Origin: a virus
Length of the DNA stretch: 11,430 bases
UHGV virus genome: UHGV-0107525
Strand: one strand, 5' to 3'
Part shown: one piece after another, positions 1,530 to 9,343 of the stretch
Layout: each line of letters opens with the position of its first letter
How positions within the stretch are numbered: the stretch's first letter is position 1
The notes under the pieces: model-generated
What the model was told of the DNA's origin: nothing
What the model saw: the letters and a program-made list of their open reading frames with translations, nothing else
Database searches by the model: none
Translations under genes and position numbers: made by a program

Positions 1530-1922
1530 ATGGAACAAATCAGCAGCGCAGAAATTGCGGATATCATGATCAGGGCTGACTGCTATCTGACAGTCACTGA
1601 AATTACCACTCTAGCTAAAGAAAAATATCCTCACCTTCATGTTTCACGCGTAAGTGTAACCAACATCATTCGGCATTTTGTGCGGTCAAGCCGAGCTATT
1701 TGTGAGCTTGATGATCGTGTTTACCCACGGAAATACTGGTTGCATGGCCTGAACGGATATCAGTTCAAGGTGCGCGGGCGCACCCCTGAATACGGCAGTT
1801 TGCTGGTTAAAAACTGTAGCCGGAAGTCTGCAGAACTGGCGCGACAAGAGCAGCGCAAGCTGGTGGACATGGCTAATAAGCTGTGGAATGCCGCAGTTAA
1901 AAAGCGTGGTGTTGCTTTATGA
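1530..1922 (+). CDS. Putative small DNA-binding protein (winged-helix-like), immediately upstream of and overlapping pacA
   Basis: ATG at 1530 with GGGGGA 4 nt upstream; stop overlaps the pacA ATG (ATGA at 1919-1922). Helix-turn-helix-like segment LTVTEITTLAKEKYPHLHVSRVSVTNIIRHF followed by a wing-like YPRKYWLHGLNGY. P1 has its late-promoter activator lpa in this position, but homology could not be verified. Confidence 0.5.
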   Translation: MEQISSAEIADIMIRADCYLTVTEITTLAKEKYPHLHVSRVSVTNIIRHFVRSSRAICELDDRVYPRKYWLHGLNGYQFKVRGRTPEYGSLLVKNCSRKSAELARQEQRKLVDMANKLWNAAVKKRGVAL

Positions 1923-3283
1923 GCCTTGTTAATTGGGAAGAGCACCGCGCCAAATTTATAGCGTTGCGTGAAGAAAAAGGGATCACCGTAAAGGAATACT
2001 GCGAGCAACACGACCTTAGCTTCAATACCGCCAGAAAGCATCTCAATATGAAAAAAAATGAGGTGCGGTCGCAGGTGAAGACTACAAAAAAAAGCACCAA
2101 ATCACCTGAAAAAAAACGGGCAGGAAGAGCAAAAAAAAGGCCAGAAGAGGGTACAGAAACAACAAAATTTACAGAAACTGACAATTCACAGAGCGGAAGT
2201 TCTTTCCGGAGCATGCCGAGAAAGAAAACTTCGGATCATAAAAATAACGACAATAATAACAATGAGATAAAAGAATCTGTCAGGAGATCATTGCGCGAAA
2301 AAATGGCGAAAATGATCCCCACCGAAGATAAATGCGCCTCAAAAATCGAGGGATCTTCAGCAATGATCCCTGGCGGTGCTGTGCAGCGTGCCACGTTGCC
2401 CACTACGAGTGTGGCTCGCGACATGATGAAGAACGGCGCAGAAGAGCACCTGCGGTTAGCAATTCAAATGGCGCAAGAACGCGCACTTCAGTACCAAAGC
2501 ATTGTTGATCAGGAGGCCGAACGCCTACAGGCGGAGATAGACGCCCTGGGTGATGAACAGCCAGAAGGAATGCACCCTGGGCAGCGACTTCTCGGTCTAA
2601 TCAGTGACGCGGCCTACTACATGAACGATTTTATCAGTAGGTTGGCAGCGATATATCAGTCCGAACAAAAGCTGCGACAGGGTGATGAAAAACTTCGTCA
2701 GGGTGCTCGCCAGCAAGCATTCAGAGAGGCCGAGGCCAGAGAAAAACTCGAATTAGCACGCCTACAGGCCGAACAGCGTGGCAAAGAGATTGAATATCGC
2801 ATTGGCGCTGACGCACGCGCAGCCAGAGTTATCGCCGCCGCTATACGTATGCGTGAGCGCGAGGAGCTGGACGATATCGGTGTTGCTGAATACATCGAGC
2901 GTCAGGGTGTCAGTGTCCCGGCTATCCTCGCGGCGCGCGCGGCGAAAGCTATCACTCTTCTCGAACCTCCAGTTTCTGACATCAATGATGTTGATGATGA
3001 ACAGCTGGACAAAGAAGCGAAGGAGTTTGCATCGCTTCAGGCTAACCATCCGCAATGGCTGGCAGAGCGCCGGGCGGATGTGGCAACCATTGTTGAAGAT
3101 CTGGGGTGCGGAGATTACGACCACAATGGCGAGCGTAAGGCTGGGGAATTCGAGGCCAACGACGAAGAGTTGGATATTGACCCTTCGGCTACGGATGAAA
3201 TTTACGGTGATTATGATGCATCAGACGCAGGATATGACGCCGGAGATGATGATATCGCGATAGAACCGCCGGAGGACGACTAA
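1919..3283 (+). CDS. pacA: Terminase small / pac-recognition subunit PacA-like
   Basis: 454-aa protein with N-terminal HTH-like region, lysine-rich linker, coiled-coil-like Ala/Arg/Glu-rich middle and strongly acidic C-terminus (DDDIAIEPPEDD). Stop overlaps the start of the large terminase gene (TAATG). Contains an internal GATC cluster, as P1 pacA contains pac. Confidence 0.8.
   Translation: MSLVNWEEHRAKFIALREEKGITVKEYCEQHDLSFNTARKHLNMKKNEVRSQVKTTKKSTKSPEKKRAGRAKKRPEEGTETTKFTETDNSQSGSSFRSMPRKKTSDHKNNDNNNNEIKESVRRSLREKMAKMIPTEDKCASKIEGSSAMIPGGAVQRATLPTTSVARDMMKNGAEEHLRLAIQMAQERALQYQSIVDQEAERLQAEIDALGDEQPEGMHPGQRLLGLISDAAYYMNDFISRLAAIYQSEQKLRQGDEKLRQGARQQAFREAEAREKLELARLQAEQRGKEIEYRIGADARAARVIAAAIRMREREELDDIGVAEYIERQGVSVPAILAARAAKAITLLEPPVSDINDVDDEQLDKEAKEFASLQANHPQWLAERRADVATIVEDLGCGDYDHNGERKAGEFEANDEELDIDPSATDEIYGDYDASDAGYDAGDDDIAIEPPEDD
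2233..2369. other. Candidate pac (packaging initiation) site: cluster of five Dam GATC hexamers inside pacA
   Basis: GATC at 2234, 2286, 2314, 2352 and 2365 within about 136 bp, in hexamers GGATCA, AGATCA, TGATCC, GGATCT, TGATCC; ATGATCCC occurs twice. P1 pac is a methylation-regulated cluster of TGATCA/G hexamers within pacA. Confidence 0.4.
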
Positions 3284-4791
3284 TGGCTGGTGGGCGCAAG
3301 ATTAAATGCGTCACCAGCGATCCACGCTGGCGCGATATGGTAATCAAATACCGCTACAACTTTACCCAGGCTGTTGTTGATATTTTCGGGATGTTTCCCT
3401 CCCACCAGCAGCAGGAGATTATCCAGTCCGTACAGCAAAAAGGGAGCAGAACCACTGTTACTTCTGGTCACGGTACAGGGAAATCGTCGTTAACAGCTAT
3501 GTTGTTGCTGATTTATTTGATTCTGTTCCCCGATGCCCGTGTCATCATTGTTGCTAACAAGATAGGCCAGGTTAAAACAGGGGTATTCAAATACGTTAAA
3601 CAGTATTGGGCGAATGCAGTTAAGCGTCACGGGTGGTTACAGACCTATTTTGTCCTGTCTGACACCATGTTTTATGAACGTTCCCGCAAAGGGATCTGGG
3701 AAGTTCTCTGCAAAGGTTATCGACTCGGTAACGAAGAAGCACTGGCGGGGGAGCACGCGGCACATTTGCTTCTAATTCTGGATGAAGCATCAGGCATATC
3801 TGATAAAGCGATCGGCGTAATGACTGGCGCTCTGACTGAAGAAGATAACCGAATGTTGATGCTATCCCAGCCAACAAGGCCAAGTGGTTATTTCTACGAT
3901 TCGCACCATTCTCAAGCTAAAACCCCAGACAACCCGAAAGGGATCTGGACAGCAATTGTTCTTAACTCAGAAGAATCACCGTTCGTCACACCACAATTCA
4001 TCAGGCAGAAACTCCTGGAATATGGCGGGCGCGATTCTATTGAGTACATGGTCAAGGTTCTTGGTCAGTTTCCTCGGGAGATTAACGGCTATTTGCTTGG
4101 TCGTGATGAATGCGATCGCGCTGCGCGGCGCAAGGTGTTGTTGGAGAAAAACTGGGGATGGGTGGCTACTGCTGACGTTGGTAACGGGCGAGACAAGTCA
4201 GTTCTTAATATCTGTAAAGTGTCTGGTCACCGGGAAAAGCGGCGTGTTGTTAACTTTAAGGTAATGGAAATGCCAGGGACTATGGACCCGCTGGCTTTTG
4301 CTGACTTTATATACAACGAATGCACACCGGATAAATACCCGAATATTACAATCGCGGTTGACGCAGACGGTTTTGGTTCAGATACCTGTGCGCAGCTGGT
4401 GCGCCGTGGGGCTAATCCGGTACGGATTCGGTGGGGGAAACCCATGTTTTCGAACAAAGACAAGGAGCGTTTTGTTAACCAGCGTGCCTACGCAAATATT
4501 ATGGCTCGTGATGCCATAAAGTCAGGTCGTATGCGAATAGACAGCGACCCTAAAACGGCAGAGCAAGCGTCAAAAATCCCCTTTTTACTTAATGAAGAAG
4601 GGAAGATGGCGATGATGCGCAAGGAGCACATGCGGCAAAAGCTGAACATCAAATCACCTGACCGATGGGATACCTACTGCTTTACAATGCTGGTGGACTA
4701 TGTTCCTGCTAATGAAGATATCGGCGCTGAAATGGCTACCTTCCGCGATCAGGTTCTTGCAGATGTGGAAATGCCAGATCTGGATATATAA
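3283..4791 (+). CDS. pacB: Terminase large subunit PacB-like (ATPase plus nuclease)
   Basis: 502 aa. Walker A-like TSGHGTGKSS, Walker B-like LLLILDEASG, and C-terminal acidic clusters typical of the RNase H-like terminase nuclease domain (VATADVGNGRD, IAVDADGFGSD). Immediately follows pacA. Confidence 0.9.
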   Translation: MAGGRKIKCVTSDPRWRDMVIKYRYNFTQAVVDIFGMFPSHQQQEIIQSVQQKGSRTTVTSGHGTGKSSLTAMLLLIYLILFPDARVIIVANKIGQVKTGVFKYVKQYWANAVKRHGWLQTYFVLSDTMFYERSRKGIWEVLCKGYRLGNEEALAGEHAAHLLLILDEASGISDKAIGVMTGALTEEDNRMLMLSQPTRPSGYFYDSHHSQAKTPDNPKGIWTAIVLNSEESPFVTPQFIRQKLLEYGGRDSIEYMVKVLGQFPREINGYLLGRDECDRAARRKVLLEKNWGWVATADVGNGRDKSVLNICKVSGHREKRRVVNFKVMEMPGTMDPLAFADFIYNECTPDKYPNITIAVDADGFGSDTCAQLVRRGANPVRIRWGKPMFSNKDKERFVNQRAYANIMARDAIKSGRMRIDSDPKTAEQASKIPFLLNEEGKMAMMRKEHMRQKLNIKSPDRWDTYCFTMLVDYVPANEDIGAEMATFRDQVLADVEMPDLDI

Positions 4792-4812
4792 AGCCCCGGC
4801 AATGCGGGGCTT
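4791..4812. terminator. Hairpin between convergent pacB and the - strand 345-aa gene (likely bidirectional terminator)
   Basis: AAGCCCCG-gcaatg-CGGGGCTT: 8-bp perfect stem with 6-nt loop directly after the pacB stop and 5 nt before the stop of the convergent gene. No strong T-run on either side. Confidence 0.55.
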
Positions 4813-4816
4813 GTGA

Positions 4817-5854
4817 TTACCAGAGTTTAGCGGCGTGCTGTGTTTGGGAGAAAGTGAACCCGTAACGTTCTTCTATGGTTTTACCGTATCTTTTCCGCGC
4901 GTCTGTCAGTTTTATGCCTGTCAGGTCATCTCCGGATGTCATCATTACGTCTAACAACTCCAGATCCATTTTATTCAGTCGCGCCATCGCTTCGCGTGCT
5001 GTCTGTATTTTACGCTCAATGATATGGCGAATAGCCGGATCGGCTTCCTCAAGCATTTTGGCTGATTTGTTCTTTAAGCTCTCATTGCGGATGTCGATGT
5101 TTCGCAAGATGTATGACTTCGCAACATAGCTTGGTTGGTGTTTCTCCAGATCGCGAACGCGATAGAGACTAAAGTCACCAAGCAGGCCGCAAGGTATCGA
5201 CTCAACCCCAGAATAAATAGTAATGCTGCGACGTTCGCCGACATTATTAACAACGGGCACTGTGGTGTTCGGAAGTTTTGCGAACACTAAGGCTCCGTGT
5301 GCGCCTACCCTGAATCGTGACAGAGCATTGCTGCCTTCAATGTTTGTTGTAAGCACTACATCTGTGTATCCATCTTTGCGCGCCCGGTAAACTTCCCCTT
5401 CAGGTTCTGATGCGAAAAAACGGCGCTCTTCTTCAAGTGCACCAACAATCTGCGAAAATATCTTGTTTTTCAGGCTTTTCTTTATAATTGCATCATATTT
5501 TTTGAGCAGATTTTCGCGCGTAAATGAGCGGGTGGTGGTCGCGCTTTGCACAACAATATGCGTGCTTTGATTTGTGTCCTCGATAATGAATGGGATCGGA
5601 GAATATACAGACTCAACAATGTTAGACGCTTTGCCGTCAGCGTTACGGCACAAGTCAACAAAGGCTTTCCATTCTGTGAGGCACTTTTCAGCTTCTTCTA
5701 GCACATTCTGATCATGTGTTAGTGCAACATGGCGGAATTCCTCGCCGGAATAACTGGTATCATGGAAAACAGAGTTTGCGACCACCAGCTCTTTCCACCG
5801 TTCAGCGGTTTGCAGGAACCGTTTGTACTCTTTCTCGATCGACTTCTTACTCAT
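4817..5854 (-). CDS. Hypothetical 345-aa protein in the position of the P1 c1 immunity repressor (possible C1-type repressor)
   Basis: Long - strand ORF convergent with pacB, AGGA-type RBS 4-5 nt upstream of the ATG (RC of 5852-5854). Placement between pacB and the lox-type site/recombinase matches P1 c1. The functional call is by synteny only; no recognisable HTH. Confidence 0.4.
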   Translation of the reverse strand: MSKKSIEKEYKRFLQTAERWKELVVANSVFHDTSYSGEEFRHVALTHDQNVLEEAEKCLTEWKAFVDLCRNADGKASNIVESVYSPIPFIIEDTNQSTHIVVQSATTTRSFTRENLLKKYDAIIKKSLKNKIFSQIVGALEEERRFFASEPEGEVYRARKDGYTDVVLTTNIEGSNALSRFRVGAHGALVFAKLPNTTVPVVNNVGERRSITIYSGVESIPCGLLGDFSLYRVRDLEKHQPSYVAKSYILRNIDIRNESLKNKSAKMLEEADPAIRHIIERKIQTAREAMARLNKMDLELLDVMMTSGDDLTGIKLTDARKRYGKTIEERYGFTFSQTQHAAKLW

Positions 5855-5872
5855 TATTCCTACTCGATTTAG

Positions 5873-5881
5873 TTTTCTAAC
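5873..5881. repeat. Copy of repeated motif (A/T)TTTCTAAC, candidate repressor operator, upstream of the 345-aa gene
   Basis: TTTTCTAAC lies 19 bp upstream of the - strand start codon. Related copies at 5958-5966 (inverted), 6048-6059, 7272-7283 and 1438-1449. Confidence 0.3.
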
Positions 5882-6047
5882 ATAAAATTACTATGACAAA
5901 TCTATGCCGAATAACAGGGTGAGTAAAGGATCAAGATGTGTTTTTTTATCATCAAATTTAGAAAATTCCGCCTAAAAACTGCCTGGCATAACTTAAAGCC
6001 CACACCATCAATGCATTGCCCATCTGCGCGGAAAGGAAAAAATTTCC

Positions 6048-6059
6048 TAAATTTCTAAC
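6048..6059. repeat. Copy of 12-bp motif TAAATTTCTAAC abutting the rox-like site
   Basis: Identical 12-mer also at 7272-7283; 9-bp core shared with 5873-5881. Confidence 0.3.
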
Positions 6060-6087
6060 TTTAGATAATTGGCATTATTTAAAGTTA
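6056..6087. other. rox-type recombination site (Dre target; lox analogue)
   Basis: TAACTTTAGATAAT-TGGC-ATTATTTAAAGTTA: 14-bp inverted arms around a 4-bp spacer. The reverse complement matches the rox site as I recall it (TAACTTTAAATAATGCCAATTATTTAAAGTTA) at 31 of 32 positions, with one arm mismatch. Lies 152 bp upstream of the Cre-family recombinase gene. Confidence 0.85.
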
Positions 6088-6096
6088 GTATATAAT
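6069..6096 (+). promoter_or_regulatory. Sigma70-like promoter overlapping the rox spacer and right arm, directed toward the recombinase gene
   Basis: -35 TTGGCA (6069-6074), 16-bp spacer, -10 TATAAT (6091-6096). Two GATC sites follow at 6100-6103 and 6109-6112. A second -35-like TTGACA at 6116-6121 has only a weak -10. Confidence 0.45.
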
Positions 6097-6239
6097 AATG
6101 ATCAAACGATCAGTATTGACAGACTCAAAAAGTCATGGTTCGAATCAAGGGCTTAAATTTTAAATTCTCACGGATAACTAGCCTGTCATTTTTTGTTTTT
6201 TCGCGTAGCGACACCAATTTATAGAGGTGAAATGATTAC

Positions 6240-7268
6240 ATGAGTAAACTTATTATCTCCGGTAATCCTGGCATGTTTCTTCGTGATATTGGTGCTGAGT
6301 ACCAGGAAGCCGCCAAAAATTTCATGCAGTTCCTTAATGACCAGGGCGCTTACTCACCTAATACACTGCGCGATCTGCGCTTGGTCTTTCACTCCTGGGC
6401 GCGTTGGTGCCACGCTCGTGGTATTGCGTGGTTTCCGATCTCCCCGGAAGCTGCCCGCGAATACCTGCTTCAACTGCATGATGCGGATCTGGCTTCAACC
6501 ACCATTGAAAAGCATTACGCCATGCTCAATATGCTGTTGTCACAATGCGGACTGCCGCAACTCTCTGATGACAAAAGCGTATCCCTGGCGATGCGGCGCA
6601 TCCGGCGCGAAGCTGCAACCGAAAAAGGCGAACGCACAGGCCAGGCTATACCGTTGCGGTGGGATGATCTGAAATGGCTCGACGTGTTGCTGTCCCGTTC
6701 CGAGCGGCTGGTGGACCTGCGCAACCGGGCGTTTCTCTTCGTGGCATACAATACCCTGTTGCGTATGGCTGAAATGTCCCGCGTGCGTGTTCGCGATCTG
6801 GAACAGACTGGTGACACTGTAACGCTTCACGTATCCCACACCAAAACCATCACGACCGCCGCCGGACTTGATAAGGTGCTCTCCCTCCGGACAACTGCGG
6901 TTCTCAATGACTGGCTGGACGAGTCCGGACTACGTGATCACCCGGATGCGATACTTTTCCCGCCAGTACACCGGAGCAACAAAGCGCGGATCACCACCAC
7001 GCCACTAACCGCGCCCGCGATGGAGAAGATTTTCAGTGACGCCTGGGCGCTGCTTGGTAAGAGTGATGCCACCCCAAATAAAGGCCGTTACCGGACGTGG
7101 ACAGGCCACAGTGCGCGTGTTGGTGCCGCCATAGATATGGCTGAAAAACAGGTGTCTTTGGTTGAAATTATGCAGGAAGGTACATGGAAGAAGCCCGAAA
7201 CACTGATGCGTTATCTTCGTCGTGGCGGTGTGACAGCAGGTGCCAATAGCCGCCTCATGGATTCATGA
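6240..7268 (+). CDS. dre: Cre-family tyrosine recombinase, Dre-like
   Basis: 342 aa. Aligns along its length to P1 Cre as recalled, with conserved blocks (FPISPE, AFLFVAYNTLLRMAE vs Cre AFLGIAYNTLLRIAE, WTGHSARVGAA vs WSGHSARVGAA) and catalytic Arg, His-x-x-Arg, Trp and Tyr (LMRYLRR) in place. GAGGTG RBS 10 nt upstream. Adjacent rox-type site supports Dre. Confidence 0.92.
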   Translation: MSKLIISGNPGMFLRDIGAEYQEAAKNFMQFLNDQGAYSPNTLRDLRLVFHSWARWCHARGIAWFPISPEAAREYLLQLHDADLASTTIEKHYAMLNMLLSQCGLPQLSDDKSVSLAMRRIRREAATEKGERTGQAIPLRWDDLKWLDVLLSRSERLVDLRNRAFLFVAYNTLLRMAEMSRVRVRDLEQTGDTVTLHVSHTKTITTAAGLDKVLSLRTTAVLNDWLDESGLRDHPDAILFPPVHRSNKARITTTPLTAPAMEKIFSDAWALLGKSDATPNKGRYRTWTGHSARVGAAIDMAEKQVSLVEIMQEGTWKKPETLMRYLRRGGVTAGANSRLMDS

Positions 7269-7271
7269 GAT

Positions 7272-7283
7272 TAAATTTCTAAC
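7272..7283. repeat. Second copy of 12-bp motif TAAATTTCTAAC, between dre and the downstream operon
   Basis: Exact 12-bp match to 6048-6059, located 4 bp after the dre stop. Confidence 0.3.
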
Positions 7284-7342
7284 ACACCTTTTTAGATTGT
7301 TATCTTTGCTGTAAAGTACCCTCTCCTATTTCGGAGGGTGCT

Positions 7343-8665: not shown

Positions 8666-9343
8666 ATGGCTAGCATAGCAACGAAAGAGCTTTTTAGGTT
8701 CATTCCCAAATACAAAGCTCACAAAATCGTTAGTGCATCGAAAATCAAAAATGTTGTTATTTTCGGAGTAACTGATACCCCACTTTGGGGCAGCATCGAA
8801 CTCGTTGAGCCAAAAGGGGCAACAGTTTGTGTTGACGCAATGTTTTTACAAAAACACCGACCAAAAACTGGCGGGTATCTGATCGTTTATGAAAACGGTT
8901 ATCTGTTCTATGCCCAGGAGAAACCATTTGAGGAATGCTATGCCCTGGTTAACGACGCCTCCGAAAATGGAACCACGGTCATCATTACGGATGACAACGG
9001 CGTGATGACTAATCTTACCGGGAGCGTAACTATTTCTGCTGGTGGCATCACTACTCAGCAAGAAGAAATCGACCTTGAAGCAGCCGACTTTTCTGACGCG
9101 CTGATGTGGCTGAAGGAAGGAAAGAAAGTTGCTCGACGCGGGTGGAACGGCGAAAACCAATTCTGCTGGCTGGTTCCTGAAGGACAGTACCCAGCACGAA
9201 TGGAAGCCATTAAGGGATATTTCCCCGGCGACCTCGTTCCGTATGGTGCTTATTTCGCCTTAAAAAATGCACAAGGTGTAGTTGTTCCGTGGGTGCCTTC
9301 GGTAGGCGACTTACTGGCGTGTGACTGGTTTGTAGTGGAGTGA
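8666..9343 (+). CDS. DUF2829-domain fusion protein (Tad2-like C-terminal domain, unknown N-terminal domain)
   Basis: C-terminal about 85 aa FSDALMWLKEGKKVARRGWNGENQFCWLVPEG...VVVPWVPSVGDLLACDWFVVE matches the DUF2829 signature (F-x-x-A-L-x-x-L-K-x-G-K-K-V-x-R-x-G-W-N-G ... D-L-L-A-x-D-W). GAGGAAAG RBS before the ATG at 8666. Confidence 0.75.
   Translation: MASIATKELFRFIPKYKAHKIVSASKIKNVVIFGVTDTPLWGSIELVEPKGATVCVDAMFLQKHRPKTGGYLIVYENGYLFYAQEKPFEECYALVNDASENGTTVIITDDNGVMTNLTGSVTISAGGITTQQEEIDLEAADFSDALMWLKEGKKVARRGWNGENQFCWLVPEGQYPARMEAIKGYFPGDLVPYGAYFALKNAQGVVVPWVPSVGDLLACDWFVVE

Follow-up and report, generated by a model that had tools for sequence, protein, structure and literature searches.

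The rox-dre locus

The stretch of DNA analysed here, called the window below, comprises 11,430 nucleotides of the virus genome UHGV-0107525 and spans the part of a D6-like, P1-type phage-plasmid that encodes immunity and packaging. Within it, a rox-like target site of the recombinase Dre is located between a gene for a c1-like prophage repressor and a dre homologue. We describe a predicted sigma70 promoter aimed at dre, the -35 hexamer of which is formed by the central bases of rox and which Dre itself might repress. The elements of the locus are as follows, with positions counted from the first base of the window:

4817-5854, minus strand: gene for a c1-like prophage repressor (345 aa), divergent from dre; annotated as a repressor in AY753669
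6056-6087: rox-like Dre target site between the c1-like gene and the dre homologue (left arm 6056-6069, centre TGGC 6070-6073, right arm 6074-6087)
6069-6074, plus strand: predicted -35 hexamer TTGGCA, made up of the 4-bp centre with one adjoining base of each arm
6075-6090, plus strand: 16-bp spacer, 13 bp of it in the right arm and 3 bp outside
6091-6096, plus strand: predicted -10 hexamer TATAAT, 3 bp beyond the right arm of rox
6102-6104, plus strand: predicted transcription start, from the usual distance to the -10 hexamer, with a leader of about 137 nt up to dre
6116-6121 and 6140-6145, plus strand: second, weaker promoter candidate, TTGACA and TCGAAT at a distance of 18 bp (9.8 bits)
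6240-7268, plus strand: dre homologue, a tyrosine recombinase of 342 aa, assigned by its Pfam domains and its identity to Dre

Positions 4800-7300 of the window are 81% identical to the immC record of phage D6 (AY753669), in which c1, rox and dre are annotated in the same order. The similarity in gene order extends further, since D6 (AY753669, MF356679) and the window share the succession pacA, pacB, divergent c1, rox, dre, two small open reading frames (ORFs) and dut. The c1-like protein of 345 aa is 90% identical to the C1 protein of D6 and 20% identical to that of P1 (pairwise E = 4e-8). The recombinase shares 89% of its residues with D6 Dre and 42% with P1 Cre. It contains the domains Phage_integrase (PF00589) and SAM-like (PF02899), and its residues R, K, H, R, W and Y align with R173, K201, H289, R292, W315 and Y324 of Cre, which identifies it as a recombinase of the Dre/Cre type.

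The rox-like sequence, TAACTTTAGATAAT-TGGC-ATTATTTAAAGTTA (6056-6087, 32 bp), has the structure of rox, i.e., two 14-bp inverted repeats (TAACTTTAAATAAT) around an asymmetric 4-bp centre beside dre, with arms that are 93% complementary. It is identical to the annotated rox of D6 (AY753669) at 31 of 32 positions, the sole change being A to G at 6064 in the left arm, and its distance to dre, 152 bp, is the same in both. Accessory Dre half-sites, which could have served as extra operators, were looked for in the window and none were found.

A predicted promoter overlapping rox

The -35 hexamer TTGGCA consists of the central 6 bp of rox. On the basis of mutational work, it was argued that the functional crossover region of rox extends into the first base of each repeat (PMC4777119). 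Read in the orientation of dre, positions 2-7 of the crossover region in this sense are TTGGCA, and hence the hexamer coincides with the presumed crossover region. A preliminary description of this DNA had placed a near-consensus sigma70 promoter facing dre at these coordinates (6069-6074 and 6091-6096), with the -35 hexamer in the rox spacer and the -10 hexamer just outside the right arm, and both its position and its quality were borne out. In a consensus scan, TTGGCA-16 bp-TATAAT was the sole match of 11/12 in the 11.4-kb window, while six other sites reached 9/12; the total of seven promoter-like sites compares with 15.6 expected from shuffled sequences. The rox promoter also obtained the highest position-weight score on either strand (14.2 bits; the runner-up scored 10.4), and its hexamers and their distance agree with what is required of a sigma70 promoter (16-18 bp). 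At the local base composition, an exact TATAAT 16-18 bp from a fixed -35 hexamer is expected in about 0.4% of cases, and 13 of the 256 possible 4-bp rox spacers (5%) result in a match of at least 5/6 to TTGACA.

Transcription usually starts 6-8 nt from the -10 hexamer, which would place the start at 6102-6104. The stretch from 6100 to 6240 contains no terminator-like site, no other strong promoter is present between rox and dre, and the RNA of the dre leader matched no Rfam family and folded no better than shuffled sequences (z = 0.36). Since c1 is divergent, no upstream gene reads into dre. For a leftward promoter through rox, analogous to P2coi of P1, the best candidate reached only 7.7 bits, and no LexA box was seen near rox. 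The A-rich left flank of the site was considered as an UP-element, but this was rejected after comparison with the consensus by eye.

The second candidate, TTGACA-18 bp-TCGAAT, lies between the rox promoter and dre. Its -10 hexamer lacks the A at position 2, which is critical for recognition by sigma70. The pair might act as a weak second promoter in tandem, in a loose parallel to the cre promoters of low strength that P1 has to the right of lox.

Conservation in the D6 clade

Relatives of the locus were obtained from a search of viral contigs with the Dre protein and a search of genomes with a protein alignment of the Dre family, the latter of which returned only four relatives, from Pantoea/Enterobacter. 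Further, viral and metagenome contigs were scanned for the pattern TAACTTTANATAA-N6-TTATNTAAAGTTA, of which the -10 hexamer is not a part, and selected plasmid records were added. The D6-clade set comprises 88 loci (individual loci are numbered with the letter L) with a Dre-like gene downstream, which represent 36 distinct types of site plus right flank. As a profile selecting on TATAAT would be circular, conservation of the -10 hexamer was counted only on sequences chosen without a TATAAT requirement.

The hexamer located 3 bp to the right of rox is TATAAT in 35 of these 36 types and TATGAT in the remaining one (L126). In contrast, the bases around it vary, with ggc, gta, tca, agc or ggt before the hexamer and cat, aat, att, ctc, tat, gta or act after it, which amounts to three to four alleles at each of the three flanking positions on either side. 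L034 still has ggtTATAATgta, TATAAT included, even though its Dre is only 70% identical and the sequence downstream is otherwise unrelated. The 32-bp site alone is sufficient for Dre recombination in heterologous hosts (PMC12331466, PMC4957104) and TATAAT lies outside this site; therefore, the simplest reason for keeping TATAAT is a function as -10 element. Accordingly, its conservation amid variable neighbours in the aligned sequences argues for a real promoter. Between site and gene, the rox promoter is the best plus-strand promoter in the window, in D6 and in L028, L034, L004 and L125; among the promoters facing dre, it is the best or near-best in most relatives.

Two further sites deviate more strongly. 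In NZ_CP026816 (L133, Shigella dysenteriae), TATAAT is replaced by TGTAAT and the right arm is mutated (AAAGCTA), while in NZ_MK356557 (L129) the left arm is degenerate and a recombinase gene is not annotated. Both look like decaying copies.

The -35 hexamer is TTGGCA in 27 of the 36 types; the others have TTAGTA (4), TTAGCA (2), TTGGAG, TGGGGA or TTGTAG. An extended -10 element (TG), which might compensate for the weak -35 hexamers of these variants, is absent. Several observations weigh against a functional promoter at this position. First, the -35 hexamer is not protected, as it changed together with the rox centre in nine of the 36 types, and it may be constrained mainly by recombination. 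Second, the variant centres cost the rox promoter 3-6 bits, and types with TAGT or GGGG fall below the TTGACA candidate downstream. Third, the arrangement TTGGCA-16 bp-TATAAT is absent from the Pantoea relatives and from P1 lox. Fourth, the intergenic region is AT-rich, and mononucleotide shuffles attain 14.2 bits in 3.6% of cases. Finally, the loci of the D6 clade are closely related and the conservation counts are not independent of each other.

The free variation of the -35 hexamer with the spacer type and the score of the shuffled sequences also speak for a different origin of the match, which may be a by-product of AT-rich DNA and a rox centre selected for recombination. In this case, dre would be read from the weaker promoter downstream (TTGACA 6116-6121, TCGAAT 6140-6145), like cre of P1, for which P1cre to P3cre are annotated, all of them on the right side of lox and with poor hexamers; moreover, TTGACA is kept in nearly all loci of the D6 clade and even in L036/L037, two more distant relatives described below. 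However, TCGAAT without its A at position 2 is a poor -10 hexamer and the downstream pair scores 9.8 bits compared to 14.2 bits for the rox promoter, and a by-product would leave unexplained why TATAAT is found in 35 of 36 types outside the 32-bp site and amid varying neighbours. Besides, both promoters could coexist. We regard an origin as a mere by-product as unlikely and consider it likely that the rox promoter is functional.

Comparison with related recombination systems

D6 shares the arrangement TTGGCA-16 bp-TATAAT with the window, although its right flank belongs to a different lineage (gtaTATAATaatGATC instead of ggcTATAATcatgtg, window versus D6). No promoter is annotated at rox in the D6 records AY753669 and MF356679. 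Full-text literature searches likewise returned no description of a promoter in rox or of autoregulation of Dre or Cre, but they did not cover the primary D6 papers, so an earlier description is possible.

In P1, as in the window, the recombinase gene lies downstream of its own site, a cluster of GATC sequences follows the site closely on its right, and part of the leader (ttcgcgtagcg ... gaggtgaaa) is homologous. Unlike the window, P1 has no promoter element inside lox, and cra is located between lox and cre. The annotated promoter P4cre, which is associated with the C1 operator Oc1e, has a -10 hexamer ending 14 bp to the left of lox and reads through lox to cra and cre (NC_005856). P3cre is situated 86 bp to the right of lox, with Dam sites 2 and 3 in and beside its -35 hexamer, site 3 being inside. 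In the window (6203-6243), the counterpart of cra is missing and the segment matching the P1 region upstream of cra directly precedes dre. Of the long inverted repeat of P1 (P1 117-176), the window has retained only the 3' half.

In the Pantoea relatives, which are of the Panto/pox type with recombinases 53-55% identical, the arms of the site are nearly identical to those of rox and the site is located about 200 bp upstream of the gene (PMC4957104). In contrast to the window, no -10 hexamer follows the right arm, and promoter matches over the site are weak (at most 9.7 bits). In the L036/L037 clade, where Dre is 57-60% identical, the site reads TAACTTTATATAAT-GTCA-GTTATATAAAGTTA (L036 1804-1831), and TATAAT is again missing after the right arm. 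A different near-consensus promoter lies over this site, consisting of TTTACA in the left flank, a distance of 16 bp and TATAAT at the very end of the left arm (13.7 bits). Judged from these sequences, a promoter beside or inside the site and aimed at the recombinase gene appears to recur in shifting registers, while the arrangement of the window is confined to the D6 clade.

Recombinase-gene promoters inside recombination sites are known from res of Tn3/gamma-delta (TnpR) and irs of Tn5401 (TnpI), where they are modulated by binding of the recombinase (PMC7157771). TnpI of Tn5401 is a tyrosine recombinase like Dre. The Tn3 and Tn5401 sites are long, with several subsites and accessory binding, whereas rox is a minimal core site of 32 bp with the -35 hexamer at the presumed crossover. 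Further, repression by the recombinase is known for the Tn3/Tn5401 type, while for Dre/rox it is a prediction. ResD of the F plasmid is a Cre-like tyrosine recombinase as well; going by a title of Lane et al. from 1986, this D protein (ResD/rfsF) is reportedly both a dimer resolvase and a transcription repressor. Thus, site-embedded recombinase promoters as such are not new. Dre/rox would add a case that is distinctive in that the crossover region of the minimal core site supplies the -35 hexamer.

Two observations concern other rox-like sites. The octamer ATGTATGC, which is the loxP spacer, occurs a few bases to the right of the rox-like site in the Pantoea loci L041-L044 (tcATGTATGCttgatc), where L036 has TGTATGC; it may be a coincidence or a vestige. 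In addition, many contigs from soil and other metagenomes (L051, L059, L063, L069, L094, L099-L111, L120 and others) contain TAACTTTA-N-ATAA-N6-TTAT-N-TAAAGTTA with diverse centres and no TATAAT after the site, which points to a family of rox-like sequences far wider than the D6 clade.

A model for autoregulation of dre

We propose that dre is transcribed mainly from a sigma70 promoter whose upstream half is part of rox; transcription would start near 6103 and pass through a leader of about 137 nt into dre. The arms to which Dre binds (6056-6069 and 6074-6087) overlap the predicted core promoter, as the 32-bp site includes the complete -35 hexamer together with 13 of the 16 bases of the spacer. 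A Dre dimer on both arms would cover these bases. Cre clamps around loxP, and by analogy, Dre and RNA polymerase are expected to be mutually exclusive at rox. The resulting negative autoregulation would hold Dre at the level needed for occupancy of rox. Further, recombination between compatible rox sites would restore the promoter whatever is joined on the left, because the whole -35 hexamer is in rox while the remaining spacer and the -10 hexamer are on the dre side. Being limited by Dre rather than controlled by the prophage repressor, such a promoter could provide Dre during infection as well as in the plasmid state. On balance, we favour this combination of a functional promoter and autorepression by Dre, in which promoter activity and start site are predicted from the hexamers and repression from the geometry of the locus.

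Alternatively, the promoter may be real and Dre may not repress it to any useful extent. The reason could be a low occupancy of rox, or an aid to the polymerase from Dre bound to the left arm, the centre of which is near -41; the overlap would then matter only by keeping promoter and gene linked through recombination. In this respect, the middle of the left arm and the predicted start are about 40 bp apart, and class II activators use this position. However, with the spacer occupied by the right arm and the -35 hexamer placed between two bound monomers, region 4 of sigma should be excluded, by analogy with Cre/loxP. In addition, the known site-embedded promoters are repressed by their own recombinases (PMC7157771). 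We therefore find an unrepressed or activated promoter quite unlikely.

The autoregulation model could be carried further. If the crossover bases also set the transcription of dre, Dre and polymerase would compete for the same 6 bp, the natural centres would be expression alleles in addition to compatibility types, and the overlap between promoter and site would have arisen more than once among Cre-like systems and in different registers, with the -35 hexamer in the centre in the D6 clade, the -10 hexamer in the left arm in the L036 clade and a promoter adjacent to lox in P1. This extension is speculative and we would not give it much credence. The natural rox centres found besides TGGC are TAGC, TAGT, GGGG, TGGA (with the first base of the right arm changed as well) and TGTA, and these variants are likely to be natural heterospecific compatibility types.

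Operator-like motifs and GATC sites

An asymmetric operator-like motif of the TTTTCTAAC family is repeated in the D6 genome and has an extended consensus of about aAATTAgTTTTCTAACAcAaa. The complete D6 genome contains TTTTCTAA 18 times, compared to 4.6 expected. Copies precede the counterparts of lpa, repL, ref and c1 (D6 genome, L127/L128), in places that presumably match the locations of the C1 operators in P1. In the P1 annotation, C1 operators are found near c1. The motif resembles the P1 operator ATTGCTCTAATAAATTT yet differs from it, and probably serves the C1 repressor of the D6 type as operator. A 26-bp motif model was built from the sites of the D6 genome and applied to the window, where the following copies are of relevance:

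5865-5890, plus strand: strong copy (CGATTTAGTTTTCTAACATAAAATTA), 26.0 bits, just upstream of c1 and conserved in the clade
7267-7292, plus strand: strong copy, 23.8 bits, directly behind the stop codon of dre and ahead of the next gene; the D6 equivalent is at 89940-89965
1434-1459: strong copy, 19.7 bits, upstream of the lpa-like gene
6049-6060, plus strand: 12-bp motif of the preliminary description (AAATTTCTAACT), overlapping the left edge of rox

The 345-aa protein would be expected to bind the three strong sites, as far as can be judged from their sequence. With this model, no strong copy was found before dre in the window, which fits a control of dre by Dre and not by the repressor. The 12-bp motif at the left edge of rox, which had been put forward as operator-like, does not belong to this series. 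At up to two mismatches, AAATTTCTAACT has four matches compared to 1.2 expected, a number that was equalled in 8 of 200 shuffles. It shares only the 8-bp core TTTCTAAC (6052-6059) with the true motif, and half of this core is identical with the first four bases of rox. A full-length match is lacking, and the 6.5 bits of the site are at noise level, since shuffled windows yield 4.6 hits of at least 6 bits. An operator at this position was rejected due to this score and because the left flank differs completely between lineages that share the right half.

The two GATC sites are located at 6100-6103 and 6108-6111, within GATCAaacGATCA. The first corresponds to the position given in the preliminary description, whereas the second begins at 6108 and not at 6109, and with a start near 6103 the two would span about -3 to +9 instead of +4 to +16. 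They lie between the -10 hexamer of the rox promoter (ending at 6096) and the TTGACA (starting at 6116), i.e., outside the hexamers of both promoter candidates. Among the 36 types of the D6 clade, the first position is GATC in seven and the second in 21, with GAAC or GTTC in the others, and D6 has neither. In a multiple alignment, the second GATC of the window shares its column with Dam site 1 of P1 and with the first GATC of Pantoea and L036, and not with Dam sites 2 and 3 of P1, the sites at P3cre (pR1), which we take to be a Dam-sensitive promoter. Only the G, A, C and A of GA-N-CA (window 6108-6112) are invariant in all seven aligned sequences from P1, Pantoea and the D6 clade; in the D6 clade, the middle base is T or A in most cases and G in others. 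Control of the rox promoter by Dam, which had been suggested from the reported methylation control of a P1 cre promoter, is thus unsupported by these alignments, although a lineage-specific modulation by Dam is possible.

There are likenesses to P1 that would suit a main control by Dam methylation of the two GATC sites or by the C1-like repressor at the left edge of rox: three Dam sites are annotated in the regulatory region of P1 cre, including two at P3cre, the GATC spacing is 8 bp both in the window and in P1 (GATCAtttGATCA), GA(T/A/G)CA about 20 bp to the right of the site is retained from P1 to Pantoea, TTTCTAAC at 6052-6059 forms the core of the operator-like motif, and the P1 operator Oc1e adjoins P4cre. 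Nevertheless, with GATC sites that are polymorphic and outside both hexamers, a left-edge motif of 6.5 bits compared to 20-26 bits for the three strong sites, and a left flank of rox that is wholly different between lineages having the same promoter, we judge either kind of control to be very improbable.

rox as a junction between lineages

On the c1 side, to the left of rox, the identity of the window to L014, L010 and L008 is about 100%, compared to only 72-80% on the dre side. Conversely, the dre side is 98-99% identical to L124 and L125, which are unrelated to the window to the left of rox (about 52%). L124 is an IncC/IncFIB resistance plasmid and L125 an IncY P1-like plasmid. Since left-flank and right-flank types also occur in several combinations across the loci, the sequence comparison suggests that the window is a mosaic jointed at rox and that natural exchange at rox takes place between lineages. 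With the -35 hexamer within rox and the -10 hexamer and dre to its right, such exchanges preserve the unit of predicted promoter and gene.

The rox-dre module, at 95-99% identity to the right half of the window, is also found outside D6-like phages, in NZ_CP049291 (L124), NZ_CP127005 (L125) and CP116019 (L126). The hosts of the module are the IncY P1-like plasmid with phd/doc (L125) and IncC/IncFIB resistance plasmids, where it is located next to IS26, IS5, Tn3 and blaTEM-1.

Two observations concern the left side of the site. The G at position 9 of the left arm (6064 in the window) co-occurs with the type of left flank. Further, an A-run within a short palindrome ends 8-12 bp to the left of rox in four otherwise unrelated left-flank types (window 6035-6047), in the forms GGAAAaaaTTTCC, GATTaaaaaaAATC, GGGAaaaaagTCCC and A9T5. 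The run might cause a bend or mark a protein site.

Possible consequences

The promoter in rox is a well-supported prediction on a widely used recombination system, and mechanistically it is ordinary. If true, it would mean that a phage-plasmid holds a potentially harmful recombinase at a low, self-limited level without relying on the prophage repressor, and that a minimal 32-bp site of the Cre type acts as operator for its own gene. For constructs in bacteria, a -10-like sequence 16-18 bp downstream of the rox -35 hexamer could create an unintended, Dre-sensitive promoter. The junctions at rox bear on the exchange of segments among phage-plasmids and resistance plasmids that carry the rox-dre module.

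Further features of the window

Besides the immunity region, the window contains the following genes:

1919-3283: pacA-like gene
3283-4791: pacB-like gene
lpa-like gene, preceded by the strong operator-like copy at 1434-1459
two small ORFs, a dUTPase gene and a gene for a Tad2-like protein

A three-codon mini-ORF, ATGATTACATGA (6232-6243), overlaps the start codon of dre. At the other end of the gene, a terminator-like hairpin, CTCATGGATTCATGAG (7254-7269), spans the stop codon and the operator-like site at 7267-7292 follows directly; dre may therefore form a single-gene unit. A domain similar to Tad2 (Thoeris anti-defence 2) was detected in two proteins of the window, encoded at 454-1029 (E = 3e-9) and at 8666-9343 (E = 1e-22).

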